Positions 2,160 through 28,009 of a DNA stretch of 37,627 bases are shown here, in pieces. Positions within the stretch are counted from its first letter, which is position 1. The number at the start of each line of letters is the position of its first letter. Source of the stretch: a virus (taxonomy: Duplodnaviria > Heunggongvirae > Uroviricota > Caudoviricetes); the IMG/VR virus record IMGVR_UViG_2778261216_000004; one strand, 5' to 3'. Below the pieces are notes generated by a model. It did not search any database, was not told the DNA's origin, and saw only the letters and a list, made by a program, of their open reading frames with translations. The position numbers and the translations under genes were made by a program.

Positions 2160-2203
2160 TTGCGGCACCTCTTGTGTGGTTACTGCTGCCGATATGATAA
2201 CAA

Positions 2204-2241
2204 ATCGATCGTTTTTATCGATCGGATTTATTGCATCGATC
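2204..2241. promoter_or_regulatory. Three ATCGATC (GATC-containing) repeats upstream of com
   Basis: ATCGATC at 2204-2210, 2217-2223 and 2235-2241, 45-80 bp upstream of the com start. This resembles the Dam-methylation-sensitive GATC cluster upstream of the Mu mom operon. Confidence 0.4.
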
Positions 2242-2271
2242 TGTTATGCCTATTGCTTATGGATGGGGATA

Positions 2272-2308
2272 CCAAAAAGAAAACCCGCAGTTTTTACGCT
2301 GCGGGCTT
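2272..2308 (-). terminator. Rho-independent terminator (hok-like transcript)
   Basis: On the minus strand, AGCCCGCAG-cgtaaaaa-CTGCGGGTT followed by TTCTTTTT, about 85 nt downstream of the hok-like stop. Confidence 0.5.
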
Positions 2309-2394
2309 GTTGTTCATGTCTGTGAGATAGGGTGCCTTATCGACCTTACCCTGGCAACCGATTGACGGGGGATTACTCCCCCGTCGCGGTTTCC

Positions 2395-2535
2395 TTACTG
2401 CTTACACTGTAAGAACGCCGCAAACTCCGCTCCCCAGAAGCTCATCCGTATTTCACACAGCGAACCGTGCAGCATCCAGATGATGAGGATTACCGTCACG
2501 CAGAATGTGATGGCCGTAAGCGATTTTTGCGACAT
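2395..2535 (-). CDS. hok: Hok/Gef-family type I toxin (small membrane peptide), not in the ORF track
   Basis: 46-aa ORF MSQKSLTAITFCVTVILIIWMLHGSLCEIRMSFWGAEFAAFLQCKQ with an AAAGGAG ribosome-binding site. It has a hydrophobic N-terminus, the conserved SLCEIR motif and an AAF motif as in Hok/HokA. The flanking UTRs are rich in hairpins. Confidence 0.7.
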   Translation of the reverse strand: MSQKSLTAITFCVTVILIIWMLHGSLCEIRMSFWGAEFAAFLQCKQ

Positions 2536-2726
2536 GGCGCTTGCTCCTTTGTTGGAGAGGCGCTAACCTATCACTTGCTTAAGGTAGATATGTTAGGGCC
2601 TCGGTTAAACAGAAATGTTTTCCGGGGCCTTTCCACATCTGGCCTTCGGGTATTCCCTCCGACCATCAGTCGAAAGGCACCCGCGCGTAATCTATCGCTT
2701 TTTTGTTGCTCCGGCAATTCTGCCCA

Positions 2727-2987
2727 TTAATTCTGAGGTAAAGGCAAACTCATCTGATTGTTTCCCCTGTGTGAAGCTGGCAGCTCATGCCACGGGATAC
2801 CTTCTGAAGAGAGAGCGCCGGAGGCGTGTTTTGATGTGAATTTATGGAAAGCTTCCAGTGTTGAGAAGCATACGCCGCATTCCAGATTGTTACACTGGTA
2901 ATACTTTTGCCGCACGGTGTTTGAATCATTTTCAGGACGACTGGTGCGGATACGGGCAGATGCGCCACAAAGCGGACAACGAAACAT
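2727..2987 (-). CDS. ogr: Ogr/Delta-type zinc-finger late transcription activator
   Basis: MFRCPLCGASARIRTSR...YYQCNNLECGVCF matches P2 Ogr (MFHCPLC...RTSR...YHQCQNVNC). Strong AGGGAGG ribosome-binding site. Confidence 0.85.
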   Translation of the reverse strand: MFRCPLCGASARIRTSRPENDSNTVRQKYYQCNNLECGVCFSTLEAFHKFTSKHASGALSSEGIPWHELPASHRGNNQMSLPLPQN

Positions 2988-3245
2988 AGCGACCTCCCTT
3001 AACGTGGTGCTGCCACCATTCTAAGTTGCCCCAACTCAGATTCCAACAGCAACTCCGCTTTGAGCAAGTCACTGAAGTAGGCTTTGTCGTGGCGAATAAA
3101 TTACATGAGTATCTCAATGATGTCATTTGAGTAGGATTTTAATGTATAACAATAAGGCTTGTGTTAATCTTAAAGTTGAATTGTGGTTTATGAAAAAAAC
3201 AAATGCTGATTCTCAACGAAAATTTCACTGAAATAAGGGTTGTAA

Positions 3246-4304
3246 ATGACAAAAACTATATCGATTTTTAATAACAAAGGTGGTGTTGGTAAAACAACTA
3301 TAATTTGGAATCTTGCAGTATCGCTAGCAGATAAAGGAAAAAGTGTTTTATTAATAGACTTTGATCCCCAGTGTAATCTCTCAATTGCATGTATTGGTGA
3401 TGAGGAATTTTCAGAGTTATTGGAACCTTCAGATGATTTCCCTTTTGGAAAAACGGTTAAAGCATTTGCATTGCCTTACATACAACAAAATACTATAGGT
3501 GAAGTTTATACAACAGAACCTAAGACTAAGACAGATGCAGGCGTTTTGCATATTGTTCCTGGAGACTTTTGGCTTAATACATTTTCAGATATTTTAAATG
3601 TCGGCACTGATGTTATAAGTGGCGCAGGGTTATATCGTTTTATTTTGCCAGATTTGATAACAAAAAAAGCATCAGAGAAAAATGATGTTATTTATGATTA
3701 TGTCCTAATAGATTTACCTCCCTCATTCAATACGCTTGTTAGATCGTCATTGTACTGCTCGGACTATTTTTTAGTTCCTTGCACACCTGATTTATTCTCT
3801 TCATATTGTGTAGGGCTGATTGGTGAGATGTTGCCATCATTTATACGTGATTGGGAGCAGGGCAAGGAAAGATATCTATCAGGTAACCCACGAGATAATA
3901 TTATATCTCAGAAAGGGATGCCTAAATTTGGCGGTTGGATATTCAATGGTTTTGATACGAGAAAGCAAAATGATGTTAAACAAGAGGTTGGTGCAGATGC
4001 AGTTCATCACCGTTCAATAAGAAAAGCGATAGAGGAAAAAATGCTTCCTCAGCTTTCACAGATTTCATCTTACAACGCGGTTCCTAATTTTACTGATTAT
4101 GAACCAGTTGGAAAGATTGAGGACCTCAACGTTATGGCTCCTGATAGTATTATTCAAAATATACCTATTCGCTATTTGTCTCGAGTTAGGCCAACGAATG
4201 CTCTTCGTGGGCGGGGGCAATGGGCAGTTAATCAGGTAGAACTAATGAATGAGATGGCTGGTGAGTATGATCATTTAGCTGAACACATAATAAATAATTT
4301 TTAA
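3246..4304 (+). CDS. Orphan ParA/MinD-family ATPase with an uncharacterised ~150-aa C-terminal extension
   Basis: Deviant Walker A NNKGGVGKTT, the DFDPQCN motif and a Walker B-like YDYVLIDLPP. The gene and its flanks are visibly AT-rich compared with the prophage. No parB-like partner is adjacent. Confidence 0.8.
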   Translation: MTKTISIFNNKGGVGKTTIIWNLAVSLADKGKSVLLIDFDPQCNLSIACIGDEEFSELLEPSDDFPFGKTVKAFALPYIQQNTIGEVYTTEPKTKTDAGVLHIVPGDFWLNTFSDILNVGTDVISGAGLYRFILPDLITKKASEKNDVIYDYVLIDLPPSFNTLVRSSLYCSDYFLVPCTPDLFSSYCVGLIGEMLPSFIRDWEQGKERYLSGNPRDNIISQKGMPKFGGWIFNGFDTRKQNDVKQEVGADAVHHRSIRKAIEEKMLPQLSQISSYNAVPNFTDYEPVGKIEDLNVMAPDSIIQNIPIRYLSRVRPTNALRGRGQWAVNQVELMNEMAGEYDHLAEHIINNF

Positions 4305-4452
4305 CATGCAAAACAAAGTGTGCGCCTTTATAAGGTGCACATTGAGTTAATTTTCTTAATTTCTCCTAAAAAATGAAAGAACTATACATCCAATAAGTAC
4401 ACTCTGTTATTGGTAATATTTACTCATTTTTGATTTAATATCTACAAATCGC

Positions 4453-5553
4453 TCACTCTGTTTCCGCTATCCATTCCGGGATTTTTGCCTCAAGCTCAAG
4501 CTGCGTGGTAAAGCCGCTGTTATCAATGGTGTGCTCGGCTTTTGCAATGATCCAGTCCTGATTGTCGATGTCACTTTTGAAGCCTGTCACCGTGCCATGC
4601 ATTTCGGGGTAGAGTTCTGCGCGTCCACGTGCCAGCGTGATGGAGAATGATGCGGCTCTGCGTTGTAGCTGCTGCCACTTTGCCGCCGCTGCGCGTCTTG
4701 CTGCCTGTTCGTTCTGATAAGTTTTGCGTAACACAAACACGTTGCCTTCCGAACCTTCCATATAGTCACCTTCACGGCTGCTGCTTTTCTCTTTTTTCGG
4801 TTTGCGGCGTTTCACGCTGACTTTTTTCTTTTTCCCGTAATTAAGATCAAGCCAGTAAGCGCGTACCCCCGTATACGCTTCGCGGTCAGCAATGCGGAAC
4901 TGATGGCGATCGCCACTGCTGCGAGTGATGGCGAACGATGGCAACGGCTGGCCCTGTGCGTTCACGCCACCGCCTGGCATGATGAATAACAGATTACCGC
5001 TTTTTACTGTGGTGATTGCGCCCAGCATTTCCGCCATGCGCGTAAGGAAGGATATGTCGCTTTCTTCAGTCTGGTCAGCGTGGTCGATTTCAATATCCAT
5101 CAGCATTTCGCTGATTTGCGGTTTCAGACCATACCGATGAGCGATGGCGGATACCACACGCTCAACGGTCACATCATGCCAGGACACCTCACGTTTAACG
5201 TTAAATTCATCCCGAAAATCTGCGCTTCTGGCTGAAACAGTCAGCCTGTCCGGCGGTCCTTCGTGAGCGATTTCATCAACAATGTAAGTGCCTTTTTCTG
5301 TCAGCGGTTCTCCTTTCCAGCCCATGAGAACCGTCAGGCGCGCGCCCCGTGGCGGTAGCTGCAACTGACCATCCACATCATCCAGCGTGATGGTGAGCTG
5401 GTCCGCCTCAAATCCCCGGTTGTCGGTCAGTGACAGGCTCATCAGGCGCTCTGCCACGCCGGACAGCGTTTTCCCCTCCGCGAGAATATCAAAATCCGGC
5501 ATTTTTACGGGGTCTGTGCTCTGACTGAGCAATTGCATGGTGGTGTCGGTCAT
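4453..5553 (-). CDS. D: Tail protein D (late control gene D family)
   Basis: Matches P2 gpD motifs (LSLTDNRGFEADQL, REGDYMEGSEGNVF). Start set at the internal ATG with an AGGGAGGGA ribosome-binding site rather than the ORF-track start. Confidence 0.85.
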   Translation of the reverse strand: MTDTTMQLLSQSTDPVKMPDFDILAEGKTLSGVAERLMSLSLTDNRGFEADQLTITLDDVDGQLQLPPRGARLTVLMGWKGEPLTEKGTYIVDEIAHEGPPDRLTVSARSADFRDEFNVKREVSWHDVTVERVVSAIAHRYGLKPQISEMLMDIEIDHADQTEESDISFLTRMAEMLGAITTVKSGNLLFIMPGGGVNAQGQPLPSFAITRSSGDRHQFRIADREAYTGVRAYWLDLNYGKKKKVSVKRRKPKKEKSSSREGDYMEGSEGNVFVLRKTYQNEQAARRAAAAKWQQLQRRAASFSITLARGRAELYPEMHGTVTGFKSDIDNQDWIIAKAEHTIDNSGFTTQLELEAKIPEWIAETE

Positions 5554-5710
5554 CTGTTCCCTCCCTGTGCGGCATGGTCGCATGTGCGTGCGGAGTGGGT
5601 TACTGCTTTTTGTTGTCGCCGTGGCGGGAGAATAGCGCAGGGGTGAGATTACGCGCGTGGTGGGTGATGATTGTTGCTGAATCATTTAACGGATACAAGG
5701 GGCTGAAGCT

Positions 5711-6895
5711 ATGAGTGAAACTCGTTTTCATGGTGCCCGTGTTACGGAAAGTACCGACCTGGTAACAGCGATTAATGATGTTGATTCCAGTGTTATCGGT
5801 ATCGTGGCAACGGCGGATGATGCGGATGCGGAGCTGTTCCCGCTGAACAAGCCCACACTGCTGACCCGCGTCAATGACGTGCTGGGAAAATGCGGAACAA
5901 CGGGGACGCTTTATCGTGCGCTTAAGGCCATCGCAGACCAGGTGAGCACAAAGGTGATCGTCGTTCGCGTGGCTGAACACAAAGAAGAAGACGGAAAAAC
6001 GCAGGATCAACTGGTTATCGGTGGTTCTGAGAATGACGGCAGCTATACGGGGATGTATGCGCTGCTTGTTGCAGAGCAGGATGAAAGCATCGGATACCGT
6101 CCGCGTATTCTGGCCGCGCCGGAGCTGGACACGGAGGCGGTGACAAAATCCCTGTGCGTGATTGCGGGTAAACTGCGCGCGTTTGTCTATGCCTCATGTC
6201 ATGGCTGTGACACGATGGCTGATGCGATTACCTACCGCCAGAAATTCAACGAACGTGAGGTGATGCTCTTATGGCCGGACTTCATCGCCTACAACCCGAA
6301 AAGTGGCAAAAACGAAACGTTCCCCGCGCCTGCCTATGCGTGCGGCCTTCGTGCGTACATTGACCATGAGCAGGGATGGCACAAATCACTCTCCAACGTT
6401 CCGGTTAAGAATGTGCTGGGGATGTCGAGGCATGTGTTCTGGTCGTTGCAGGCCGAAGACAGTGATGCCAACAGCCTCAACAACAAAGAAATCACGACCA
6501 TTATTCGTCGCAACGGGTTCCGCTTCTGGGGCAACCGCACACCGGAAACGAACGCCTACATCTTTGAGGTGTACACCCGAACCGCACAGGTGCTGGCTGA
6601 TTCAATTGCGGAAGCGCAGTTTGAAACCATCGACAGTCCACTGACGCCTGCGAACGTGAAGGATGTTATCAGTGCCATCAGGGCAAAACTGGATTCGCTG
6701 GTTACTGCCGGGAAACTGATTGGCGCGGAGTGCTGGTATGACGTGGTGGATAACAGCACCACGAATTTACGTCAGGGGCGCGTGCGTATTCGCTACAAAT
6801 ATACGCCTGTTCCCCCGCTGGAAGACATGGAGCTTTACCAGTCGTTTACTGATGAATTCTTTGGTCCCGCATTTGCGGTGCTGGGAGGTGCCTGA
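5711..6895 (+). CDS. FI: Tail sheath protein FI
   Basis: 394 aa; N-terminal region (IGIVATADDADAELFPLNKP) resembles P2 FI. Confidence 0.9.
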   Translation: MSETRFHGARVTESTDLVTAINDVDSSVIGIVATADDADAELFPLNKPTLLTRVNDVLGKCGTTGTLYRALKAIADQVSTKVIVVRVAEHKEEDGKTQDQLVIGGSENDGSYTGMYALLVAEQDESIGYRPRILAAPELDTEAVTKSLCVIAGKLRAFVYASCHGCDTMADAITYRQKFNEREVMLLWPDFIAYNPKSGKNETFPAPAYACGLRAYIDHEQGWHKSLSNVPVKNVLGMSRHVFWSLQAEDSDANSLNNKEITTIIRRNGFRFWGNRTPETNAYIFEVYTRTAQVLADSIAEAQFETIDSPLTPANVKDVISAIRAKLDSLVTAGKLIGAECWYDVVDNSTTNLRQGRVRIRYKYTPVPPLEDMELYQSFTDEFFGPAFAVLGGA

Positions 6896-7407
6896 TGGCT
6901 GTACCAAAACATCTTCGCTTTTTTACGCTGTTTGTGGATGGTGAAAACGAAGTGGGTAAGGTGACGTCCGTCACTCTACCTAAGCTGACGCGCAAAACCG
7001 ACAGCTACCGGGGTGGTGGCATGATGGGTGCGGTAAGTATTGATCTCGGTCTGGACGACTCCGCGCTTGATGCGAGCTTTGTCATGGGGGGCGCAGTTCG
7101 TGAGCTGTTCCTTAAGTATGGCGGCACGATTGACGGCACGCTGCTGCGTTTTGCGGGTGAATACTACACCGATGCAGAAAGCGACCTGTATGAAGTCGAA
7201 ATGCGCGGACGTGTGACGGAAATTGATATGGGGGAAGCCAAACAGGGCGAAGCCACATCACACACTTACGCCATTAAAAACACCTACTACAAGCTGAGTG
7301 TTAACGATCGCCCGTTGTGGGAGATTGACCTGCTGAACTTCATTTACCGGAAGGACGGCAAGGACATTGTGCCCGATCGCATCCGTTCCGCGCTCGGGCT
7401 TGGCTGA
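6895..7407 (+). CDS. FII: Tail tube protein FII
   Basis: 170 aa, start overlaps the FI stop; P2 FII-like. Confidence 0.9.
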   Translation: MAVPKHLRFFTLFVDGENEVGKVTSVTLPKLTRKTDSYRGGGMMGAVSIDLGLDDSALDASFVMGGAVRELFLKYGGTIDGTLLRFAGEYYTDAESDLYEVEMRGRVTEIDMGEAKQGEATSHTYAIKNTYYKLSVNDRPLWEIDLLNFIYRKDGKDIVPDRIRSALGLG

Positions 7408-7461
7408 TAAGTAATATGCAGGCGGCGCAGTGCGTCGCCTCTGACTGAAAGGAATTTCCTG

Positions 7462-7827
7462 ATGAAAGAGACGAAAAACATCGATACCGAAAACACGGTA
7501 GTTGCTGACACTGTGAAAGAAACCAGTGAACGTGGTGTAAAACTTACCCAACCAATTGAGCGAGGCGGCGAAAAAATCACGTATGTGGAGATCACCGGGG
7601 CTATTGAGCAGGCTGGATCTCTGCGAGATTTGTCGCTGTCTGATGTGCTGAATCTGAAAGCGGAATCCATGTTTACGCTGCTGTCACGCGTGACATCACC
7701 GCGACTGGATGAAGTGACGATCAAAAAAATGGCATCCCGTGACTTTATTCAGTTATGTGTGGTTGCCGTAAATTTTTTGAGCGGTGCGGACTCTGGCGGG
7801 AAGAACGAACAGGCGACGGAAGCCTGA
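7462..7827 (+). CDS. E: Tail assembly chaperone E
   Basis: ORF between FII and T with an AAAGGAA ribosome-binding site. It contains the slippery site used to make E+E'. Confidence 0.8.
   Translation: MKETKNIDTENTVVADTVKETSERGVKLTQPIERGGEKITYVEITGAIEQAGSLRDLSLSDVLNLKAESMFTLLSRVTSPRLDEVTIKKMASRDFIQLCVVAVNFLSGADSGGKNEQATEA
7773..7779 (+). other. Programmed -1 ribosomal frameshift site T TTT TTG giving the E+E' fusion (7462..7991)
   Basis: The heptamer TTTTTTG lies in the E frame; the -1 frame continues as the overlapping 7755..7991 ORF. Same slippery sequence and arrangement as P2 E/E'. Confidence 0.7.
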
Positions 7828-7941
7828 TCACGGTTGTGTGCTTTGAGCACATAGAAGACTTTGTGGCAGATATTGCCGTTATTTTTAACTGGTCGCCCGC
7901 CGAAATCTTCATGATGACGCCCGGCGAAGTGGTTAGCTGGC

Positions 7942-10785
7942 GTGAGCGGGCGGCACTTCGCAGCGGGAATGCAGACAATGAAGACTCTTGATATCCGGGT
8001 CGCTTTCAGCGCCGTTGACAGGCTGACCCGACCTGCCGAAAACGCACGCCGCCTGATGGGGCAGTTTGGTGACTCCATCCAGCGAACGCAGGGGGCGATC
8101 AAAAATCTCGAGCGTCAGGCGCGATCATTTGAGCGCGCCCGCGACGCTGTCAGTAAAGCGGATGCGGGTATCGTGAAAGCACGACGCCAGCTTAACGCCC
8201 TTAATCAGTTACAACGCACGGGTACAGTGCTCAGCGAAAAACAACAAAAGCTGATGCAGCAGTTAAGCACCCGGCTTGAACGCCTGAATGAATCGCGCAC
8301 ACGGGAAATTCAGAAAATGCGGGAGCTTGGCGGAGAGCTGAAACGCCACGGCATTTCCCTGACAGGCAGCGATAACACCATCCAGCAGGCCATCAGACGC
8401 ACCGAACAGTACAACAACCAGCTTGAACGCGAACGGCAGGCGCTTGCGCGTGTAACGCGGGCGCGTGAGCGGTATTCGCGCGCGCAGGAAACCGCGGGAA
8501 AACTGAAAACAGGTGGTGCGCTGGCAACTGGTGCTGCAGCGGCGGGCGGCTATGCTGCCGGGCGTTTTTTGCAGCCTGCGATCGGGTTCGGCAAAGAGAT
8601 GTCCCGCGTTCAGGCACTGACGCGAATCGACAAAAACAGCCCGCAGTTTAAGGCGCTGCGTGAGCAGGCGTTAAAACTTGGTTCTGAAACACAGTTTACT
8701 GCGAGTGATGCCGCCAGTGGGCAGAGCTTTCTGGCAATGGCTGGTTTTACTCCGCAGGCCATTCAGGCCGCATTGCCCGGTGTTCTTAATATGGCGCTGG
8801 CAGGTGGCGTCGAACTCGGCGAGACGGCTGATATAGGCTCCAATATCCTCACACAGTTCAACCTGACAGCCGATCAAATGGACCGGGTTGGCGATACGCT
8901 GACAGCGGCATTCACCCGGACCAATACTGATTTACGCGCGCTGGGCGAAACCATGAAGTATACCGGTCCGGTTGCCGCAAAACTTGGTATCAGTCTTGAA
9001 GAAGCGGCAGCCATGGCCGGGATGCTTGCCAATAATGGTCTTCGTGGAAGCGATGCTGGTACGGCCATGCGCGCAAGTCTGTCCCGCCTTGCATCACCGC
9101 CAAAAGCTGCGGCTGATGCGCTGAAAGAGCTGGGGGTGTCAGTTGCTGACGCCAGAGGCAAAATGCGCCCGATGGAGGATGTGCTGCTTGATCTCTATAA
9201 GGCGACACAAAAATACGGACAGGTGGACCAGGTTTCCTTCTTCAAGGACATCGCCGGAGAAGAGGCGTTCGTTGGTTTGCAGACGCTTGTTGCGGCGGCT
9301 GGTTCAGGAGAGCTGCAAAAACTGACCAGAGAATTGCAGGGGGCAAGGGGAGAGGCCGATCGCGTTGCAAAAGTAATGGCCGATAATCTTGATGGGGACC
9401 TGAAAAATCTCGACAGCGCATGGGAAGGTCTTCGTATTCGCATCAGTGATCTGGTTGACGGTCCGCTGCGTTCTGTCACGCAGTGGCTCACGCGGGTGCT
9501 TGAAAAAATCACCTCGCTGGCGCAGGCCCATCCGGTACTGACGCGCCAGCTACTGATAGCAGGCGGTGCGTTGCTGGCAATGACTGCAACGGTTGGCTCG
9601 TTGTCGCTGGCTATTGGTGTGCTTGCTGGCCCGCTGGCAAAACTGCGTCTTGGTTTTTCTCTCCTGACCGGATCAATGAATGCTGTCAGGGTCCTGCCAG
9701 CACTATGGGGAATGGTGACGGGTTCCGTTTCTTTGCTGGGAGGTGCTATCGGGGCGCTGTTCAGTCCGGTCGGATTGATTGCTGCTGCGTTTGTGGCTGC
9801 GGCGGTTCTCATCTGGAAATACTGGGAACCCATTAAGGCGTTTTATGCCGGGGTGTTCAACGGGATTATGGAACGGCTGGCTCCGTTGCGCGAAACCTTT
9901 GAACGGTTTGGCCCTGTTTTTGACGCAATCGGAAGCGGGATCAGTCAGGTGTTTAACTGGTTTAAATCGCTGCTGTCACCGATGGAGTCCAGCAAGGAAA
10001 CGCTGGATAAATGTACCAGTGCTGGCGAGATATTCGGTAACGTTCTTGGCGGTGCGTTACAGCTTGTTCTGACACCTGCAAAAATGCTACTGGATACGCT
10101 GGCGTGGATACTTGAAAAACTTGGCGTCCTTCCGGATGAAGCGGAAAGGGCGCGCAAGAAAATCGAAGACGCACAGCGTGCGGCCATTCTTCAGGACAAG
10201 GTTGCCTTGCTTCAGGGGGACCTTGCGAAAATCAATCCGCCGAAGCCTGTGGAAAATGGCAATGGCACCGGGGGTGATAAACCCAAAGACAACAAACCAT
10301 TCACAGACAGCAATACCGGGACGCTACGCAGACTCAGCAAAATTGCTGATAACACAGGTAAGCTGGTTGATGAGACGAAAAAACGTATTGGCCCCGGCGA
10401 TATTGTCTTTAAGAACCTGCCCCGCGCACTTGCCGTTCGTGGGGAGTGGCAGGAGCGGAAGAGTGCGCAGGTCAGTAAGCCTGCTTCCGCAATCAACATC
10501 ACACCCGTGGTCCCGACTCCTCTGCCTCCGGCGCTGGTCCCTGTTGTTGCGGCCAGCTCCCGCCCGGTGGCGGAGGCCATACGATCGCCAGTGGCATCAG
10601 TTCCTGCAACTTCCCGTAACCGGGAGCCTGTTGTCTCCGGATTTGGCGGTGAAATTCATGTTCATCTGCATAACGTTGTTACGCAGAATCCCCGCGAACT
10701 GGCGAAACTGGTCGGTGAAATGGTCAGGGCAGAAATGGAACGGCGCGCCCGTGCCGGGCGTGGCAGTTTTTGCGATAAAGATTGA
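7942..10785 (+). CDS. T: Tail tape-measure protein T
   Basis: 947 aa, coiled-coil N-terminus, Gly/Ala-rich hydrophobic middle, position after E/E'. The exact start is uncertain (alternative ATGs at 7969 and 7978). Confidence 0.85.
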   Translation: MSGRHFAAGMQTMKTLDIRVAFSAVDRLTRPAENARRLMGQFGDSIQRTQGAIKNLERQARSFERARDAVSKADAGIVKARRQLNALNQLQRTGTVLSEKQQKLMQQLSTRLERLNESRTREIQKMRELGGELKRHGISLTGSDNTIQQAIRRTEQYNNQLERERQALARVTRARERYSRAQETAGKLKTGGALATGAAAAGGYAAGRFLQPAIGFGKEMSRVQALTRIDKNSPQFKALREQALKLGSETQFTASDAASGQSFLAMAGFTPQAIQAALPGVLNMALAGGVELGETADIGSNILTQFNLTADQMDRVGDTLTAAFTRTNTDLRALGETMKYTGPVAAKLGISLEEAAAMAGMLANNGLRGSDAGTAMRASLSRLASPPKAAADALKELGVSVADARGKMRPMEDVLLDLYKATQKYGQVDQVSFFKDIAGEEAFVGLQTLVAAAGSGELQKLTRELQGARGEADRVAKVMADNLDGDLKNLDSAWEGLRIRISDLVDGPLRSVTQWLTRVLEKITSLAQAHPVLTRQLLIAGGALLAMTATVGSLSLAIGVLAGPLAKLRLGFSLLTGSMNAVRVLPALWGMVTGSVSLLGGAIGALFSPVGLIAAAFVAAAVLIWKYWEPIKAFYAGVFNGIMERLAPLRETFERFGPVFDAIGSGISQVFNWFKSLLSPMESSKETLDKCTSAGEIFGNVLGGALQLVLTPAKMLLDTLAWILEKLGVLPDEAERARKKIEDAQRAAILQDKVALLQGDLAKINPPKPVENGNGTGGDKPKDNKPFTDSNTGTLRRLSKIADNTGKLVDETKKRIGPGDIVFKNLPRALAVRGEWQERKSAQVSKPASAINITPVVPTPLPPALVPVVAASSRPVAEAIRSPVASVPATSRNREPVVSGFGGEIHVHLHNVVTQNPRELAKLVGEMVRAEMERRARAGRGSFCDKD

Positions 10786-10791
10786 GGAGTC

Positions 10792-11286
10792 ATGGCCATG
10801 ATGATGATCTACGGCATGTTTGTTTTTGAGCTGCGCACATTGCCGCATCAGCAGTTACAGCAAAACAAAAGCTGGCGGCATGTGAAAAATGAACGCGTTA
10901 ACCGTTCAGCAAGCTGGCAGTATATCGGTGCAGGTGATGATCGCATTGTGCTTTCCGGCGTGCTTTATCCTGAAATTACAGGTGGCGAAGTGTCGCTTTC
11001 GTTGCTGACCACGCAGGCATATACAGGACGCCCCTGGCCTCTGATTGATGGTGTCGGGCAGATTTACGGCATGTATGTACTGACTGAAACGAATACGACC
11101 CGTTCCGAGTTTGATCGCTACGGTAAGGCGAAAAAGATAGAATTTTCACTGACTCTTGAACGCTGTGATGAGGATTTGCGGGAGCGCCTGCAATCCTCAT
11201 CGTTCAGCGATATGTTGTCCGGCTTCAAAGATAAGGTGACATCATCCCTTAATAGCGCGGCCAGCTCAGTTAAGGGGCTGCTCTGA
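10792..11286 (+). CDS. U: Tail protein U
   Basis: Matches P2 gpU (MMMVLGLFVF...WQYIG.GDD...LSGVLYPE). Confidence 0.85.
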   Translation: MAMMMIYGMFVFELRTLPHQQLQQNKSWRHVKNERVNRSASWQYIGAGDDRIVLSGVLYPEITGGEVSLSLLTTQAYTGRPWPLIDGVGQIYGMYVLTETNTTRSEFDRYGKAKKIEFSLTLERCDEDLRERLQSSSFSDMLSGFKDKVTSSLNSAASSVKGLL

Positions 11287-11442
11287 TTTAACGTATGTCG
11301 CCAATTTCCTGATGAAGGTGACTGGCGACTTGCTGTTGTATGTCCTTCTCAGAAAATTGTTTTTGAATAACAAATAACAGGATTTTATAATCTCTTAACC
11401 TTATAACATGTGTGGTCTGAAATAATAATTAAGGAGATTATC

Positions 11443-12015
11443 GTGCTGTCTTACTTAATGGCAATTCACTTTGTTTTATTTGGGGACTCTACTAATTTAA
11501 AAAACTTCTGGAAATATGAAGTAATTCGGCGGAAACGTATGGATATCTGGAGGCTTTTAAGAGAGAAAAAACAGCGTAACCGGAATTTCCTTTTCTGGTG
11601 GCGGTTGGCTAACGAAATGTATATTAATGGTAATAAATTACATAAGAAAGCAGCCAAAAAGTTAAACAGTAAAATAATTAACAAATTTGGTTGTGAAATT
11701 GGATTGGGCGCAAATATTGGAAAAGGGTTAACAATTCCCCATCATGCTGGAATTGTTGTTCATTTTGCTGTTGATGCTGGTGAAAATCTGGTGTTACGAC
11801 AGAATACTACCATTGGACAGATAGATGGTGACATGCCTGGTTCAAGAGTAAAAATTGGTAGTAACGTTGATATCGGAGCTAATTGTTGCATCATTGGATT
11901 ATCACGTAAAATTGGGGATAATGTAAAAATAGGTGCAATGTCTTTTATAAATAAAGATATACCATCGAACTGCACATATATAACTAAAAAGAGCGGTGTT
12001 GTATTGTATAAATAG
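11443..12015 (+). CDS. Hexapeptide-repeat (left-handed beta-helix) acyltransferase, accessory gene
   Basis: Repeats of the IG.N..IG type resembling WcaB/CysE-like acetyltransferases. GTG start with an AAGGAG ribosome-binding site. Visibly AT-rich. Sits at the position of P2 Z/fun. Confidence 0.7.
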   Translation: MLSYLMAIHFVLFGDSTNLKNFWKYEVIRRKRMDIWRLLREKKQRNRNFLFWWRLANEMYINGNKLHKKAAKKLNSKIINKFGCEIGLGANIGKGLTIPHHAGIVVHFAVDAGENLVLRQNTTIGQIDGDMPGSRVKIGSNVDIGANCCIIGLSRKIGDNVKIGAMSFINKDIPSNCTYITKKSGVVLYK

Positions 12016-12058: not shown

Positions 12059-12637
12059 TTATTGTGGGGCGACTGGCCACTCAACATCCGCTGCTACCGC
12101 TGTATTAACACGATTCAACAATACCCGGTATGTCTTCCATGCAGCCAGTAACGATGCCTCTTCCTCCGTTGCAATATCCAAATCTACGGCATCCTGAAGT
12201 GGCGCAATATGCTCGCTGGCTACCTGCATCAGGCTGTTTTTTGTTTCTTCCGCCTCCCTTATCCGAAACAGTTTTTCTGCTTCTGCATCTTTCACCCAGG
12301 ATGTGCCGTTCCACTTCTGATACTCTCCATACGGCGACAACCAGGTAACATTTTCCGGTAATGGACCGAGTTCAGAAATAAATAACGAGTCCCCTGATGC
12401 CACGTCATAAACCGTTTTACCCCGATGGTCTTCAACGAGATGCCACGATGCCTCATCACTGTTGAAAACGGCCACGAAGCCAGCCGGAATATCTGGCGGG
12501 GCAATATCGGTACTGTTTGCAGGCAGACCTGTATGAGGCGGAATGTATGCGTCACCTTCACCAATAAATTCATTAGTTCCGGCCAGCAGATTATAAATTT
12601 TTATGGTCCGTGGTTGTTCACTCATTCTGAAATCCAT
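12059..12637 (-). CDS. G: Tail fibre assembly protein (G-like chaperone)
   Basis: Tfa-like N-terminus ([24 protein letters not shown]). Start set at an internal ATG 3 codons into the ORF. Confidence 0.8.
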
Positions 12638-12645
12638 GTTCACCT

Positions 12646-13548
12646 CTACTTAATATCAGAGACAGAATATTGTTTATTGAGCGTATGGGTGTGAGCACCA
12701 ATAACGATGCTACTTCTGTGGCTATGTGCGCCAGAGGTGACATTACCTACGGGATTTTCTGGATTAATCCGGTGTATATGCGAATCAGGGCGAAACCGGT
12801 TATTAGCCTGATGTTGTATCAGTACATCATCAGCCTGATGTTCAGGGTTAATACAGACCTGCCCGGAACGTGAGCAATACGTCCGATAATCGCCGCATCC
12901 AATATATTTAGCATCCGCATAACGGCAAACAGAATTACCCGGACAGTATGCATATGTGCCAAATACTGCCGACTGGCGGGATTGTGCGTATTCCCAGTTA
13001 ATTGATTCTGTTTTTTTATTAAAGTTATCCCAGGCCTGCTTCATCTGGCGGGCAACACTTTCAAACGGTACCTGACCACATCCAGCCCCCATCGCAGGGA
13101 ATACCACCGTCTTTATTTTCCTGTCTGTCGTTGCGTTTTTATTGTGCTGAAAGATGGCAAGCAGAGCGGCCCAGGTTGCGTTATATACAGCGTCTGTTCC
13201 GTCAATTGTCAGCGGAACACGCATTGTTGGCGCATGTACCAGCCAGGGGTGATGATTATGCCCCGTTTCAATAACAAACGCAGATCCTACAGGCTGCTCG
13301 CCTAGATATTCACGAAGAATATGATTCTGAACGCGGGACTGTAACTGAGTACCGAAGAATGCGGTAATGGCGGCATCAACACCGCCATCCATCAGGCCGA
13401 AACTATTTGCCGCACTTACCATACAGTCAAATTCTCTGATTGTTTCAAATGGCTTTCCGACAATATTCACATTATCTGCGTTTGCAAATACCCGCTTAAA
13501 TGCTTCAGCCATTTCTGTTACTGGTGCAGAAAGAATGAGCGTAATCAT
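12646..13548 (-). CDS. Macro-domain protein with a Cys-rich, His-x-His C-terminal tail
   Basis: [19 protein letters not shown] and [10 protein letters not shown] fit the macrodomain NAAN...GGGV.GAI signature. Its ATG overlaps the H stop (ATGA) and has a GAGG ribosome-binding site. C-terminal [18 protein letters not shown] resembles the H tip repeats. Confidence 0.7.
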
Positions 13549-15341
13549 GCAAGCCTCACAATATAGTTAAATGCGATGTTTTTGACGGTGTTTTCCGCGT
13601 TACCAGCAGCGTTAACGGTGATGGTGTGTCCATGTGAGCCAATCGCAACCGAGTGCGTGTGTGCACCAATACCGACAGTGTGCTGATGAGAACCAATACC
13701 TACAGTATGAGAATGTGAGCCAGAGGAACCTGTTGTTGCTGATGTATATTGAGTTGCCAGACGCCCAGATGTCAGTGGAATTTTCCCCCCCTGGTTTGCA
13801 CCATCTGATGTTGGTATTGAATGCGTGTGACTCCCGGCGTTACTGGTAGTTTTGGTCCCATAGTCAAATAGTGAGGTTGTTTTCGTCCCGTAATCAAACG
13901 ACGATGTGGTTTTCGTACCCAAATCCGTACTGGATACGCTGGCGCTGTGGGTGTGCGATTTAATGCCGTCCTGTTCCTGAGACAATACGGCACGACCACT
14001 GGCGGGCTTGCCCTTAATCGTCCAGCCACGCATATCAGGGATCACGCCTGACGGATAAGCGGCTGCAAGTTTCGGGTATGCAGATTTGTCAAAAGTCTGC
14101 CCCACCATGATAGCGTAACCGTCAGGCGGCGTATCTGACGGCCACGGCAGAGGTATTCCCGGTGGTAATGCTTCAATTCCCTTTGTGCCATCAAAAGCAA
14201 CACCACTGATGGGGTGTGCTGTTTCCAGTTTACTTGCAGATACTGCGTTACCTGTTGCGGATAATGCGCCAATATCCTGCACTGTGGGCTTGTTTTTATC
14301 CGTGTAAGTGCGGTACCAGATGGTTTTTTTTCCCTTGTCCAGTATCACCCCGGTAAATTGCGCCCGGTGTTCTTTTGTGGTCGGATCTGAATCTTCCAGC
14401 CCTGTGGTGATCCTGACTATTCCGCCGATGATTTCGCCAAACACTTCAATCAGGCAGCCGCCCAGGCCGATATCACCGTACCCCGTGTCAGTAAGCACGC
14501 AGTGCTGTGACAGCGAAATATTAGCCCTGAATATCCAGCTCCCTGTTCTGAAGGCGCCACGCTCATTCAGCCACTCCACGAATTGTTCCGTTGTCCAGCG
14601 TTGTCCTGCTTTACCTATGTACCCGTTTTTTGCATAAACGCGTGGTGTGCCCACGTTGATCAGGAACAGCTCCTTGTTGGGGATGTCCTCACCATTGCGG
14701 TTTTTCGCAAGCCGACCATCAGCGTTGTCCATGGCGATCTTTATGGCCTTTGGCGTGGCTGCCCGGGTCTCTGATGTACTGGTGGTGTCGCTGCTTAACT
14801 GAGTAAAACCTTTTGTGGTCAGCGAGGCATCCGGGTGACGTCGTGACTGTTCATGCTCTTTCAGTTTGTCATCCACGTAATCCACTGTGGCCATCACCAT
14901 GGTGTTATCCACGGTAAGCGCCACGGTGGCAGTGCTGGATACGGTCAGAATGGTGCGAAATGTTTGTGCACGTCCGGACCCTTCGGCAACGGTTGGTTTG
15001 TAACTTTCGGCAGTATTGCCCACCGCGATTAAATCGCCGTGCTCATCAAACACACCAATTTCCCGGATCCAGAATCCGCCCGTTTCAGGAGGAATAACCA
15101 GCTCCGCAATAATGCGGTTCTGATGTGTTGCGTCCAGGATGACGCGATTAACAGTGTGTCGCCACACCTCATGCACCAGACGGATCTGCTTACTGTCTGG
15201 TGTGGGCAACGTGCCGCCACCGTCGCCCACGGCCATATGAGTCAGGCGGACAGGCTTACCATCTGGCGCGGCTGCCTGAGCTAATTTTTTTGCACCCGTA
15301 TCGGTGATAACGGTTTTAAATTTTCGTGTTGTGGTACTCAT
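13545..15341 (-). CDS. H: Tail fibre protein H
   Basis: N-terminal 150 aa match P2 gpH ([26 protein letters not shown]); C-terminus has His-x-His repeats and ends [15 protein letters not shown]. Confidence 0.85.
13845..13935 (-). repeat. Three imperfect 30-bp tandem repeats inside H (encoding DYGTKTTS(S/L)F)
   Basis: Protein-level repeat [28 protein letters not shown] and the corresponding DNA periodicity. Confidence 0.5.
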
Positions 15342-15343
15342 GC

Positions 15344-15874
15344 TTAATCGCCTGGATAAATGGTAATAACTTCACCGTCATAAGTTGCCGCCGCTGCGAA
15401 AATATCCCCCGGAATTTCCTGAATGATATTCAGCCCTGTCATGTGGCGGCTGACCGGACGGGCATCAGCAATCAACCGCTCCATTTCCAGATACATTTCC
15501 TCCGTCACGCCACTGTCCAGTGTGCCGACTTCAACGGTAAATGTTCCCGGTTCTCCGCCGAACTCCCACCACTCAGACACGCGAATGAGGTATCCCAGCG
15601 GTTCAATGGCCCTGCGCAGTGCGCTGATGGTCCCTTTGTGTCGGTGTATCAGCCATGCATCACGAATAACCTGTCGCTTTGTCTCTTCCGGCCAGTTGCG
15701 ATCCCAGCGGTCAACGGAAAATGCCCAGGCGAGATAAGGCAGCAGATGCACCGGGCAGGTGTCCGGCGACCACAGCGTGTTGAGGTCTACCGGGATGTCT
15801 GTAATGCGCGCTCCGACAGCTTCGGCACAACGCATGAAATTGCTGGCTGATGGCGGTAACAGTGAATTACTCAT
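15344..15874 (-). CDS. I: Baseplate protein I
   Basis: Matches P2 gpI ([28 protein letters not shown]). Start set at the internal ATG overlapping the J stop. Confidence 0.85.
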
Positions 15875-16763
15875 TACGCCCACCTTCGCTGATGGTGAAT
15901 GACTCACAGCGCGCCGCCTGTATGTCGCTGATGGCCATATTCTGTGTAGGTTCGATTATCTCCACGCGTTGCACACCGTGCACATGCAGTGCGGCAGCAA
16001 TGGCGGACAACGCCACGTCCTGACCGATAAGCCCCTGCTCAGCCAGCCACTTCCTGAACGACGATTCAGCCGCAGCCAGAATAGGTTCGGATTCCGGACC
16101 GGGGTAAAAGTACAGTTTTGCATTCAGCCGCCATGTCACGATGCTGGCGCTCTGTACGGTCAGGCGGTCGGCCACCGGGCGGGTATCCTCTGCATTCAGA
16201 ACGGCGCGAACGGTATTAAGCAACGCCTCCGTTGCTGTGCCGTCGCCTTTAGTGGACAGAATGGAAACCGTCACATTTGCCGGAGACGGACTGATAGCCC
16301 GCGCATCACGCACCAGACCGCTGGCGCTGCGGGCAAAATACTCGTATGCACCTGACGGGCCAGCAACACTCAGGCCGTCGTACGCCCGCTGCGCCCGCAG
16401 TCTCAGCGAGGTGTCGCTCTCCATCACCGCGTCGGTGGTATCCGTTGCCGGAGTGATAACCAGGCGCTTTGTGTTCATATTGCCCGCGAGGTTGTCCAGG
16501 TCTGTCCCGGCGCTGTGGCTTAACATGCAGGCGCGTGCACCCTCATTGACCCGCTGGCGTAACAGCATTTCACGAAACGCTGTTGTCTGGGCGATAACGT
16601 TCAGTGGTTCCGATTCCAGCTCCAGCGCGGCGGAGACGGCTTCACGCTGTTCGGCGGGATAAGCCGCAATCATCATGGCCTTTGTGTCAGCCAGAATTGC
16701 TTCAAAGTCAGGCTCCGCGATGATGGCGGGTTCCGGTAACTGGGAAAGGTCAACGGCGGGCAT
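15867..16763 (-). CDS. J: Baseplate assembly protein J
   Basis: 298 aa, P2 gpJ-like, in the conserved W-J-I order. Confidence 0.9.
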   Translation of the reverse strand: MPAVDLSQLPEPAIIAEPDFEAILADTKAMMIAAYPAEQREAVSAALELESEPLNVIAQTTAFREMLLRQRVNEGARACMLSHSAGTDLDNLAGNMNTKRLVITPATDTTDAVMESDTSLRLRAQRAYDGLSVAGPSGAYEYFARSASGLVRDARAISPSPANVTVSILSTKGDGTATEALLNTVRAVLNAEDTRPVADRLTVQSASIVTWRLNAKLYFYPGPESEPILAAAESSFRKWLAEQGLIGQDVALSAIAAALHVHGVQRVEIIEPTQNMAISDIQAARCESFTISEGGRNE

Positions 16764-16766
16764 GAT

Positions 16767-17117
16767 TTACTCCCTCAGCGTGATGGTTAACTCAACATTC
16801 TGCATGGTCTGCATGACAGTGCCCGACAGCGTCACCCCGGCGCGGCCTCCCGCTTTCCAGACAACGTCGATGGCATCCAGGGCAATGCGGGGTTCCCATC
16901 GTGTCAGCGCAATCACGGCAGCACTCATGCATTGCAGACGCGTGGTGTTATTCATGGGTTCGTCAATCAAATCAGGCACAAGGCTGCCATATTCCCGTCG
17001 CATAACCCGGCTGGCCAGCGGGGTGGTCAGGATGTCCCTGACTGACTGTTTCAGGTGCTCCATATCGTTCAGGTTTCCCGTTCCGTCCGGGTTCATTCCT
17101 GTGTAGCGGGTTGTCAC
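16767..17117 (-). CDS. W: Baseplate wedge protein W (gp25-like)
   Basis: 116 aa, GPW/gp25 family features, conserved position. Confidence 0.85.
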   Translation of the reverse strand: MTTRYTGMNPDGTGNLNDMEHLKQSVRDILTTPLASRVMRREYGSLVPDLIDEPMNNTTRLQCMSAAVIALTRWEPRIALDAIDVVWKAGGRAGVTLSGTVMQTMQNVELTITLRE

Positions 17118-17695
17118 TGCGGGCCTCCTGTCGAATCGCTGCCACCTTTAACGCCACCGTGCTTATGCGTATGCACTGTGATGCCGTTTGAGGTGAAATC
17201 GCCGCCGCTGTGCGTGATATTGCCGCTCATCTTTCCCCCTTTTGTGACGTCAAGCGTCGCTGTTCTCAGAAGGTCTGTGCATTCCACGACGGGCGTATCC
17301 AGTGTCACGCTGACGGATGCCTGCAGGGTGGCTGTTTTCATGCCGCTGGCGCTCAGTGCGCCAGCGTCTGCGTCGTAGCGGAACACCGCGCCATCCGGCG
17401 CGCTGACCACGATTTCTTTCAGGCTTTTGCCGGGGGCCGGACTGGCATCACTCCACAGGCTGCCAATTATCATGGCGGTTTCCGGGTTGCCGCCAATGCA
17501 GGCAATTACCACCTGTTCGCCCACTGATGGCGGCAGCCACACATTGAAGGCCCCCGCGCGCGTGGTGTTCCAGCGCAACCAGCCTGTTTCCAGTTCGCCG
17601 CTGCGAACGCGCACGCGCCAGGACTTCTCATCAACTTCAGAGATGATCCCGGTGCGGATGATATTGCTCAGCAGTCGCATGAGTTCTGCGCTCAC
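17114..17695 (-). CDS. V: Baseplate spike protein V
   Basis: 193 aa, P2 gpV-like, conserved position. Confidence 0.85.
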   Translation of the reverse strand: MSAELMRLLSNIIRTGIISEVDEKSWRVRVRSGELETGWLRWNTTRAGAFNVWLPPSVGEQVVIACIGGNPETAMIIGSLWSDASPAPGKSLKEIVVSAPDGAVFRYDADAGALSASGMKTATLQASVSVTLDTPVVECTDLLRTATLDVTKGGKMSGNITHSGGDFTSNGITVHTHKHGGVKGGSDSTGGPQ

Positions 17696-18336
17696 CGTAC
17701 AGCCTCCGCAATCCGGCCCAGCACCGTGTTATAAATCAGGCGCTCATCTGCCTGGCTGATACCCAGCAGCTCACGTACCGGGTAATCGGTGAAAATGCCC
17801 GGCGCAACCTGATCGCGCTCACCGAACTGATGAACGCGTGCAATACGTGCGGCCACGCCGCTGTAACCCACCGTCACACCGGAAGCATCTGCACGGGCTT
17901 TCAGGTAGCGGGCGGTGCGCAGTTTTACGAACATGGGGACGCGCTTTGTGCTGTCCTGGTTGATGCGCCTGGTGCGTATTTCCAGAAAACGGTTGATGTC
18001 ATCCCGGTAAAACGTGCGGATATTGTTTTTATCCTCATCCCACCCGGTAATGGTTCGCCCGTATTTCCCCGTGTCGTGATGCCAGTTTTTCAGCGTGCGT
18101 GCTTCGTTATTCCAGATAAAGCGAATGCGTTCCTGTATCCTGGTTACGCGGCGTCTGCGTGGTGTCCACGCGGTCCCGTCCGGCGCTTTCTGTGACCGGA
18201 TACGCGCCTGCTGGGCGCGGCGTAAATCCTGTGCCAGCTTTCTGGCGATGTTATTGATGGCCTGCTGATTCAGGCTGTCGCGGATGGCCTCAAGGGTTTC
18301 ATCCACGCGGGTGAATGCCTTATCCATCGCTTTCAC
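17692..18336 (-). CDS. S: Tail completion / virion morphogenesis protein S (long form)
   Basis: Position between R and V; longer than P2 S (about 150 aa by memory). Confidence 0.7.
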   Translation of the reverse strand: MKAMDKAFTRVDETLEAIRDSLNQQAINNIARKLAQDLRRAQQARIRSQKAPDGTAWTPRRRRVTRIQERIRFIWNNEARTLKNWHHDTGKYGRTITGWDEDKNNIRTFYRDDINRFLEIRTRRINQDSTKRVPMFVKLRTARYLKARADASGVTVGYSGVAARIARVHQFGERDQVAPGIFTDYPVRELLGISQADERLIYNTVLGRIAEAVR

Positions 18337-18787
18337 CCCACGTCACATCCTGGAATACATGCGACCAGTCGCCTTCGGAAGATGGCAGGCGGGGTTTTGG
18401 CTCCGGCAGGTGTTCTGCCTGCGGGGTGCCCTGACTGATGCGCGTGATGCGAACGCGTTCCCGCAGGGGGAGCGTAAACAGGAGATCGGCGCTGTCATCG
18501 TCATTGATAACGGCGGAGAATTTGATGTCCTGATTACGCTCAGGGTTGAGCAACAACTGTGGCTGATTTTCGGATAACCACGCCAGCAGCGGCAGCGTGA
18601 GGTCGTCCAGCTCCCCGGCGTAATCCATGACAAACATCACCATCTGATAGCGGTAAACAAACGATGGGGTTTCTCCTGTCGTTTCAATGTTGCCGCTCTC
18701 CACGAAAATGGTGAATTTTTCCGGGTTAGCCTGACACCATCGGCATGAACGGGTCATGGCTTCACGCAGGGAATCAGTTTTCAGCAT
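18320..18787 (-). CDS. R: Tail completion protein R
   Basis: MLKTDSLR...LPLLAWLSENQP resembles P2 gpR. Confidence 0.8.
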   Translation of the reverse strand: MLKTDSLREAMTRSCRWCQANPEKFTIFVESGNIETTGETPSFVYRYQMVMFVMDYAGELDDLTLPLLAWLSENQPQLLLNPERNQDIKFSAVINDDDSADLLFTLPLRERVRITRISQGTPQAEHLPEPKPRLPSSEGDWSHVFQDVTWGESDG

Positions 18788-28005: not shown

Positions 28006-28009
28006 TGGT

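Follow-up and report, generated by a model that had tools for sequence, protein, structure and literature searches.

Background

In the immunity of bacteria to phages, ADP-ribosylation and signals derived from NAD now occupy a central place (DarTG, Thoeris, CmdTAC). The Macro2-type clade of macrodomains has a single studied member, yeast Ymx7/YMR087W (PDB 1NJR), which is an Appr-1″-p phosphatase (PMC6397177). The one phage macrodomain characterized to date as a counter-defence protein, AdfM (PhiKZ gp104/PhiPA3 gp108), belongs to jumbo phages and is taken up into their phage nucleus (PMC13309987). Together with DarG2 it belongs to a different macro clade, which is ALC1/TARG1-like and possesses a catalytic Lys. 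In T-even phages gene 38 is located directly after the fiber gene and encodes a chaperone in T4 and, in the T2 type, an adhesin bound to the tip, and the HxH triplets of the T4 gp37 tip coordinate iron in the trimer.

The gene described here (the macro gene) encodes a predicted macrodomain protein and is part of a 37,627-nucleotide stretch of viral DNA (IMG/VR record IMGVR_UViG_2778261216_000004), the whole of which is referred to as the window. Ymx7 is a cellular gene, whereas the phage protein is encoded in a tail-fiber cassette and its activity is predicted only. AdfM enters the phage nucleus, whereas the gene considered here belongs to a late tail operon; its relatives in jumbo phages, e.g., PhiPA3 gp271, are genes other than AdfM. 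Like T-even gene 38, the macro gene lies immediately downstream of a fiber gene. The tip of that fiber is a close homolog of the T4 gp37 needle/tip, and the tail of the macro protein bears the same G[AS]HxH unit, but in only 1-4 copies and without the collar or head domains of gp37. The gene resembles morons (the P2 Z/fun hotspot, Gifsy effector genes) in its deviating GC3, its presence in a minority of otherwise identical cassettes and the variable moron adjoining it; unlike morons, it shows no promoter or terminator signal above background, resides inside a fiber-chaperone pair, and belongs to the one gene family found at the site.

Gene organization and expression

The window is, over its whole length, a P2-like prophage encoding gpD, sheath, tube, tape measure, gpU, gpI, gpJ, gpA, and an integrase. 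The tail-fiber gene H (13545..15341, minus strand, as are all the segments and signals given below for the fiber, macro, and tfa genes) specifies 598 amino acid residues with matches to Pfam Phage_tail_fib, Phage_fiber_2, and Collar. Its final 201 residues (13548-14150) form a receptor-binding tip of the T4 gp37 type, which contains five G[AS]HxH units and matches PDB 2XGF (T4 gp37 tip) with E=8.5e-73. The tail fiber assembly chaperone gene, tfa (12059..12637; 192 aa), is of the lambda Tfa type (Pfam Caudo_TAP, E=1e-39), and its product begins with MDFRMSEQ, similar to the lambda-type MAFRMSEQ. The Pfam fiber domains and Caudo_TAP bear out a preliminary description of this DNA, in which H was taken for a tail-fiber gene and the gene downstream for that of its chaperone; the fiber is of the P2 type. 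An acetyltransferase moron is found at 11410-12015, next to the fiber cassette; phage Chuche has a glycosyltransferase in that place.

The macro ORF (12646..13548; 300 aa) sits between H and tfa. Its ATG (13548-13546) overlaps the TGA stop codon of H (13547-13545) to give ATGA, and a GAGG (13557-13554) precedes it with a 5-nt spacer; the whole coupling signal, as read from the sequence, covers 13545..13557. Both the overlap and the ribosome-binding site had been noted in the preliminary description. At the other boundary (12635..12648) one reads the TAG of the macro gene (12648-12646), GAGGTG, and the tfa ATG (12637-12635). The gap between stop and start, GAGGTGAAC, is 8 nt in length rather than the 9 bp first given. 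The boundaries of the macro and tfa genes are identical in the RefSeq coordinates. The order fiber-ATGA-macro-tfa, with its 4-nt overlap, recurs in all 83 of the 83 related loci which cover the upstream sequence, confirming that this arrangement is more than chance.

Consensus scans for a promoter or terminator of the macro gene gave no signal above the shuffled expectation, and an Rfam scan revealed nothing relevant, its sole match ('IS009') lying within tfa. From the position of the macro gene, late expression is predicted. In Gifsy-1, STM2586-STM2587-STM2588 appears as one unit among the listed responding operons of mutagen-treated Salmonella (PMC2225428). This, together with the want of a promoter signal specific to the gene, is consistent with late co-expression. 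A programmed frameshift joining H to the macro protein is unlikely: a -1 shift at CTT GCA reaches the macro frame, but no slippery heptamer is present.

Insertion at the fiber-tfa junction and spread

Phage ev099, which has no macro gene, possesses the same fiber 3′-end (95.7% nt identity) and tfa (91% nt identity) directly abutting with a TAATG overlap. By blastn, homology to the window extends through the fiber gene to 13544 and resumes in tfa from 12637; since the two genes abut in ev099, the insertion corresponds exactly to window positions 12638..13543. It also provides the tfa ribosome-binding site, GAGGTG. The comparison shows the macro gene as a single, precise insertion at the stf/H-tfa junction, behind a fiber with a T4-gp37-type tip.

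In a sample of 77 junctions with the same fiber end from viral contigs, tfa follows directly in 74, the macro gene is found in three, and no other gene occurs; that insertions in general collect at this site is thereby ruled out. Among complete E. coli genomes, the fiber 3′-end is present at 6646 places (3898 genomes) as against 131 places for the macro gene (128 of 5426 genomes; 22 on plasmids), such that only about 2% of the E. coli fiber cassettes possess it. The fibers of ev099 and of these many other cassettes show that the macro gene is unnecessary for fiber assembly. In Salmonella the gene is plentiful, with single protein clusters containing hundreds of member sequences.

Synteny was examined in 87 related loci from Escherichia, Salmonella, Erwinia, Izhakiella, and IMG/VR. 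The macro gene always follows a fiber ending in ...NAE[NT]... and precedes tfa, while the fiber N-termini upstream vary with the phage type: P2 H-like, lambdoid StfR-like (up to 1172 aa), or that of an N15-like plasmid prophage. The prophages which carry the cassette are P2-like, lambdoid (including Gifsy-1), and N15-like, and their hosts are Escherichia, Salmonella, Citrobacter, Erwinia, and Izhakiella. The named phages with the gene are Gifsy-1, SEN4/SEN5, and the P2-like isolate Chuche. Across loci the macro gene is 97-100% identical where divergence has gone further in the fiber tips (approximately 70% amino acid identity with the window) and in Tfa (80-90%); in one locus (L088), for instance, residues 1-196 are 99% identical to those of the window, the fiber tip 73%, and Tfa 90%. 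Conservation of the macro gene thus often exceeds that of the sequences on either side, which indicates that it has spread by recombination within a mobile fiber-tip/tfa cassette.

These data bear on the idea that the gene is hitch-hiking cargo which, through defence or lysogenic conversion, helps the lysogen and not the phage, and is retained because the cassette is highly mobile. Its GC3 of 0.405 differs from that of H (0.518; tfa, 0.44), and its near identity beside diverged fiber tips and Tfa points to recombinational spread. The ends of tail-fiber modules are, moreover, classic sites for morons, as exemplified by the acetyltransferase, the Chuche glycosyltransferase, and four GC-rich loci in which macro genes lie right behind tfa. 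Against this, the scans revealed no promoter or terminator above background, the start and stop junctions tie the gene to late genes, which are generally silent in P2-type lysogens, and only the macro family occurs at the sampled junctions, which are thus no general moron hotspot. We consider a cargo role very unlikely.

The macrodomain

Residues 1-196 (12961..13548) match Pfam Macro PF01661 and score 68.1 bits where the cut-off is 22 (E=8e-19; aa 44-169, covering model positions 1-118/118). An earlier AlphaFold2 model, made on a shallow alignment, gave a pLDDT of 51; when modeling was repeated with an alignment of 70 sequences, residues 1-196 were predicted at a pLDDT of approximately 90, with the three-layer alpha/beta/alpha macro fold. 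The ADP-ribose-binding loops are present (N48-SFGLMD-G55-G56-V-D58 and G154-A-G-C-G158), and among 58 unique family members N48, D58, H105, and the loop glycines are invariant, save for G156 (57/58). The profile match and the predicted fold support the preliminary description, which had recognized a macrodomain signature in the N-terminal part; the signatures quoted there are present.

Ymx7 is the nearest solved structure, and both by sequence profile and by structure the protein is closest to the Macro2-type clade. The two proteins share the signature VS[PA][GA]NS[YF]G..GG.D, H-x-PT..P, G.G..G.VP. Ymx7 N80, D90, and H145, which we take to be its catalytic residues, align with N48, D58, and H105 of the phage protein. 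Their identity is only 21%, and the phage protein is without the insertions of Ymx7 and possesses an additional 100-residue Cys/His tail. By profile and predicted structure, then, residues 1-196 are a macrodomain of the Macro2/Ymx7 (ADP-ribose-1″-phosphatase) type, marked by N48, G55, G56, D58, H105, and G154-G158, with an intact catalytic signature. Assignment to the DarG/AdfM type was dropped, the PADLOC DarG model scoring only 14.5 bits (E=0.004) and the closest type being the ADP-ribose-1″-phosphatases. Pfam revealed no Caudo_TAP domain in the ORF, and neither Pfam nor PHROGs revealed a fiber family in the ORF or in its C-terminal 125 residues.

An enzyme of this kind in a fiber cassette had been called unexpected, a view that holds only in part: existing annotation describes the product as a macro-domain protein, both in RefSeq (“macro domain-containing protein” in 128/5426 complete genomes of E. 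coli) and in the record of Gifsy-1 ('contains pfam01661, Macro'). In PHROGs the family is phrog_2613 (PHROG 2613), 'unknown function'.

Macrodomains bind ADP-ribose, and it is by means of a macrodomain that the effector of Thoeris II detects His-ADPR. The protein might therefore be a non-catalytic binder, or sponge, which sequesters an ADP-ribose-containing immune signal (gcADPR, His-ADPR) or free ADP-ribose late in infection. A sponge that acts stoichiometrically would be well served by expression coupled to a structural protein made in abundance, and the studied Macro2-type enzyme is narrow in its activity (PMC6397177). The invariant N-x6-GG-V-D motif and His105 (Ymx7 H145) argue instead for retained catalysis, and no link of the macro family to Thoeris was found; we regard this explanation as quite unlikely.

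The C-terminal extension and selection

The remainder of the protein consists of two parts. The first (12820..12960; aa 197-243) is a Cys cluster with C202, C208, (C218), C225, and C232 followed by H237-Q-x-D-D, i.e., five cysteines and not the six reported initially. Of 58 unique family members, 54 retain four of these five. The segment is modeled with a beta-hairpin at residues 211-225 (pLDDT 54-71) and is probably a metal-binding knuckle. The second part (12649..12819; aa 244-300) is a His-x-His tail containing SHIH, GAHSH, and GAHTH, with HxH motifs at 257-259, 275-277, and 286-288; its pLDDT is below 40, and disorder is predicted for it in the monomer.

The likeness of this tail to the tip of H, which the preliminary description had pointed out, holds for the motif but hardly for an alignment. 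In a six-frame translation of the whole window G[AS]HxH occurs at seven sites, five in the H tip and two in the macro tail, and nowhere else. A profile built from fiber tips picks up Salmonella-type tails (E~5e-8), and in certain Salmonella tails IGAHxHxIx is repeated at the 9-residue period of the fiber. By BLASTP, however, the tail aligns with H at only E=0.005, and the likeness of the DNA extends over 14-16 nt at the motif and no longer. The resemblance between tail and fiber is, at the level of sequence, one of motif only. The C-terminal 125 residues have no homolog outside the family among 1.8 billion (1.8e9) representative proteins, the remote matches being unrelated repetitive proteins, and residues 197-300 have no match in the PDB. 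Residues 197-300 are a lineage-specific extension with a four-Cys cluster and 1-4 fiber-like G[AS]HxH units. With an extension that has neither outside homologs nor PDB match and a DNA likeness to the fiber of only 14-16 nt, an origin of the ORF as a displaced fragment of a fiber gene is ruled out.

The tail is variable within the family. HxH units are lost in some members (e.g., GTPTHT, GAYNHG), indels are frequent, one tail pairs with different fiber ends, and one fiber end with different tails. Tail-less proteins of 203 residues occupy the same ATGA/TAATG slot in three loci (L348, L362, L371). In Izhakiella the tail is unrelated, yet it is also rich in Cys, His, and HxH; it is not a frameshifted standard tail, as the other frames do not encode one. 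Its independent origin suggests that a property of the tail is under selection. The dN/dS values are 0.02-0.09 for the macrodomain (aa 1-196), which is below those of the neighboring fiber tip and tfa, approximately 0.17 for the Cys cluster (aa 197-243), and 0.3-1.3, with many indels, for the HxH tail (aa 244-300). Such values show the ORF, as judged from its substitutions, to be a real accessory gene of the tail-fiber cassette which is kept by selection. Taken together with the losses of HxH units, the swapped and missing tails, and the Izhakiella tail, the dN/dS pattern indicates that the enzyme is the selected core and the tail a modulating, compositionally selected appendage.

In spite of this variability, the tail raises the question of whether the enzyme is associated with the fiber or virion. 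The tail might form a metal-stapled trimeric stalk, similar to the gp37 needle and folded by Tfa, which docks the macrodomain on the fiber tip or Tfa, or elsewhere in the particle, for carriage to the next host. The universal ATGA coupling to the fiber gene favors such an arrangement, as do the confinement of G[AS]HxH in the window to the H tip and the macro tail, the 9-residue period of the Salmonella tails, the match of these tails to the fiber-tip profile, the homology of the H tip to that of T4 gp37, and the independently derived Cys/His/HxH-rich tail of Izhakiella. On the other hand, some 98% of otherwise near-identical cassettes lack the macro gene, tail-less variants hold the same slot, and tail and fiber end do not vary together; an obligatory role in the fiber is disfavored for these reasons. 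The tail, furthermore, evolves at a dN/dS of 0.3-1.3, has lost several HxH units, and is a predicted disordered segment in the monomer. Fibers remain extracellular, where NAD-derived substrates are not generally expected. Association with the fiber or virion is unlikely, but the specificity of the motif and the recurrence of the lineage in structural modules (see below) make it the leading alternative to the function proposed at the end.

Maturation of the fiber offers a further explanation, in which the Cys/His tail would be a metallochaperone giving Fe/Zn to the HxH sites of the fiber, or a co-client of Tfa, and the macrodomain would remove an adduct from fiber or chaperone proteins. The location of the gene between those for fiber and chaperone fits, as does the metal-binding composition of the tail, which evolved a second time in independent form; a distant HxH fiber (L350, see below) is followed by genes in this same order. 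But near-identical fiber tips assemble without the macro gene in most phages, tail-less versions exist, and the strong constraint is on the macro part and not on the tail. We therefore regard a helper function as highly improbable.

Relatives in other genomes

Standalone homologs of the macro part, approximately 200 residues in length and about 50% identical, are found in Chloroflexota, Cyanobacteria, Acidobacteria, and Planctomycetota. No conserved partner gene was found for these cellular homologs, and there was no ART or sirtuin partner among their neighbors. A FemAB-like gene lies downstream in 11 of their loci and nuo-subunit-like membrane proteins are encoded upstream in eight, both assigned by eye from the sequence; as pointers to function these neighbors are uninformative. 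In a rough neighbor-joining tree, which is indicative only, the phage-borne forms are apart from the cellular ones, and the tail-less proteins are nested inside the tailed enterobacterial clade.

Wider viral relatives (30-45% identity) were collected from other viral contigs. Several are neighbors of structural genes. On a low-GC contig (L350) the relative is located between a P2-like fiber of the HxH type and a 200-aa ORF; in L307, L313, L315, and L333 it is directly behind a tail-fiber assembly gene; in L293 and L297 it follows the portal gene with an ATGA overlap; in L306 and L310 it is behind head-morphogenesis or head-closure genes; and in Microcystis phage Mae-JY35 it is found amid virion and ejection proteins. 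Others have a setting in replication or in nucleotide metabolism. One lies between primase and helicase (L326) and another behind ribonucleotide reductase (L356), while jumbo-phage copies are in metabolic clusters; in jumbo phage FBKp24 the relative is five genes from an RNA 2′-phosphotransferase. The product of the latter enzyme is the precursor of Appr-1″-p.

The structural neighborhoods (the fiber-macro-200-aa ORF order of L350, the portal genes of L293 and L297, and the virion and ejection proteins of Mae-JY35) are further points in favor of a virion location. In its fullest form, this explanation holds that the macrodomain is borne by the virion, where a Tfa-folded, metal-stapled, trimeric G[AS]HxH mini-needle docks at the gp37-type tip or elsewhere in the particle, so that temperate phages of several morphotypes would carry an ADP-ribose-processing activity. 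We find this version rather unlikely; if it were true, the recurrence of the lineage beside tail-fiber, portal, and ejection-protein genes would reflect a role in the virion.

Proposed function

The explanation which we favor, tentatively and at a little short of an even chance, is that the protein is a late cytoplasmic hydrolase of 1″-substituted ADP-ribose species with a phage accessory or counter-defence function. It would be synthesized in the cytoplasm during the late lytic phase, at a level that follows fiber production, and would hydrolyze, or at least bind, NAD-derived 1″-substituted ADP-ribose species. Candidate substrates are an Appr-1″-p-like small molecule, a signaling nucleotide, or a host-made ADP-ribosyl adduct arising during infection. 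The protein would accordingly serve in counter-defence or damage reversal rather than as a fiber assembly factor. The Cys/His tail would probably bind metal and may drive oligomerization, possibly with the help of Tfa; it would modulate the enzyme without being essential, given that proteins lacking it are maintained at the same site.

Several lines of evidence point to such an enzyme. The fold and the Ymx7 type are agreed upon by several comparisons, the signature residues are invariant in 58 sequences, and the macro part is under purifying selection (dN/dS 0.02-0.09). Fibers assemble without the gene (ev099; 6646 fiber ends versus 131 macro genes; 74/77 junctions), and the tail is dispensable or variable, as seen from the tail-less forms, degenerate HxH units, indels, and free pairing with fiber ends. 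The standalone cellular homologs and the jumbo-phage copies in metabolic clusters suggest relatives that are cytoplasmic enzymes, and the clade is characterized as Appr-1″-p phosphatase (PMC6397177). The scans for promoter and terminator, which gave nothing above background, and the listing of the Gifsy-1 trio as one unit (PMC2225428) fit late expression with the fiber. A precedent exists in AdfM, a phage macrodomain which counters DarTG2 (PMC13309987).

Other observations weigh against the hydrolase. The macro gene could be linked to no candidate ADP-ribosylating or TIR system of the host. It forms part of a late structural operon, whereas genes for counter-defence are usually expressed early. 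The fiber-like HxH units are non-random, and the Izhakiella tail hints at selection on a property of the tail. Distant relatives beside tail-fiber/tfa, portal/head, and ejection-protein genes fit a virion-linked role at least equally well, and the only studied member of the Macro2 type was reported to be without protein de-MARylating activity (PMC6397177). A literature search on the function of the tail-fiber macro family, including STM2587, anti-Thoeris hydrolases, and ARTs targeting tail fibers, found no study.

Implications

New in this analysis are the Macro2 assignment, the exact anatomy of the insertion, the universality of the coupling, the pattern of selection, the fiber-mimicking and dispensable tail, and the recurrent structural-module context of the lineage. 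The family represents a macrodomain type (Macro2/Ymx7) which is different from that of AdfM, almost unstudied, and under strong purifying selection, and it has tractable carriers in Gifsy-1 of S. Typhimurium LT2, Chuche, and SEN4/SEN5. Its placement between fiber and chaperone genes, its fiber-mimicking Cys/His tail, and its horizontal transfer with a receptor-binding cassette are unusual. Should the protein be virion-associated, it would represent a new kind of tail-fiber accessory; should it be a counter-defence enzyme, host-range modules and immune evasion would be linked in one mobile unit.

Organization of the tail region

The tail block FI-FII-E-T-U (5711–11286) is located on the + strand, whereas 4453–5685 and 12059–18787 are on the − strand. 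Measured against the gene order of phage P2, the block is inverted. It and gpD are divergently transcribed, and the starts of FI and D are only ~25 nt apart. Because the same arrangement is found in the isolated and viable phage Chuche, a P2-like virus carrying the macro gene, and in an O157:H7 prophage, the inversion is a feature of the lineage and not an assembly error.

Between gpU and the chaperone gene tfa lies a gene (11410–12015, + strand) for a hexapeptide acetyltransferase resembling EpsC, CysE and WcaB, which possesses a low GC content (0.34) and a promoter-like site at 11363–11391. In Chuche its place is taken by a glycosyltransferase, while phages Ro157c2YLVW and JL22 carry the same acetyltransferase after tfa. 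The acetyltransferase gene has the look of a variable moron for surface modification, occupying a site equivalent to Z/fun of P2. Within the coding sequence of tfa itself there is a full-length match (192 bits) to the Rfam model IS009 (12096–12294, − strand); this model was probably built on prophage tfa DNA, and the match is probably not a distinct RNA gene.

Plasmid-type and possible accessory genes

The region 27694–28969 (− strand) encodes ParM, recognized by its StbA_N and ParM C-terminal domains, and plasmid-stability protein B, and is adjoined by an Ead/Ea22-like gene. The two genes represent a plasmid-type segregation module within an integrase-bearing P2-like prophage. Beyond gpD are found a ParA/AAA_31 ATPase (3246–4304), an N6/N4 DNA methylase (1226–2017) and an ORF with a weak match to GemA (1–996); this end of the prophage (1–4304) may carry cargo with an accessory or defence-related role.

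Macro gene relatives and rearranged copies

The viral contigs L348, L362 and L371 (IMG/VR; GC 0.46–0.49) carry macro genes specifying 203-residue proteins that lack the Cys/His-rich tail and are 69% identical to the window protein. These occupy the same slot, with ATGA at the fiber–macro junction and TAATG between macro and tfa.

On a Salmonella-type viral contig (L122, 3791–6825) a second, tandem and decayed copy, consisting of a fiber-end fragment, a 196-residue macro fragment and a fused macro–Tfa ORF, lies upstream of an intact fiber–macro–tfa set. The family protein P0018 (463 residues; Logan contig) is a chimera in which residues 1 to ~222 of ParM are followed by a macro protein that begins only at residue 61, and the catalytic N48–D58 loop of the macrodomain is absent. 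Since parM and the macro gene of the window are on the same strand and 15 kb apart, P0018 is probably the deletion remnant of a similar prophage; alternatively, it is an assembly artefact.

Many members of the macro family, even standalone homologues from cyanobacteria and Bacteroidota, bear the database name “phage tail protein,” a label that appears to have spread from gene position, not evidence. The Macro2-type gene of Klebsiella jumbo phage FBKp24 is annotated as “tail protein.” Five genes upstream, in identical orientation, is a Tpt1/KptA-like RNA 2′-phosphotransferase (region 2454–5513), and this pair would fit an ADP-ribose-1″-phosphate processing pathway in FBKp24.
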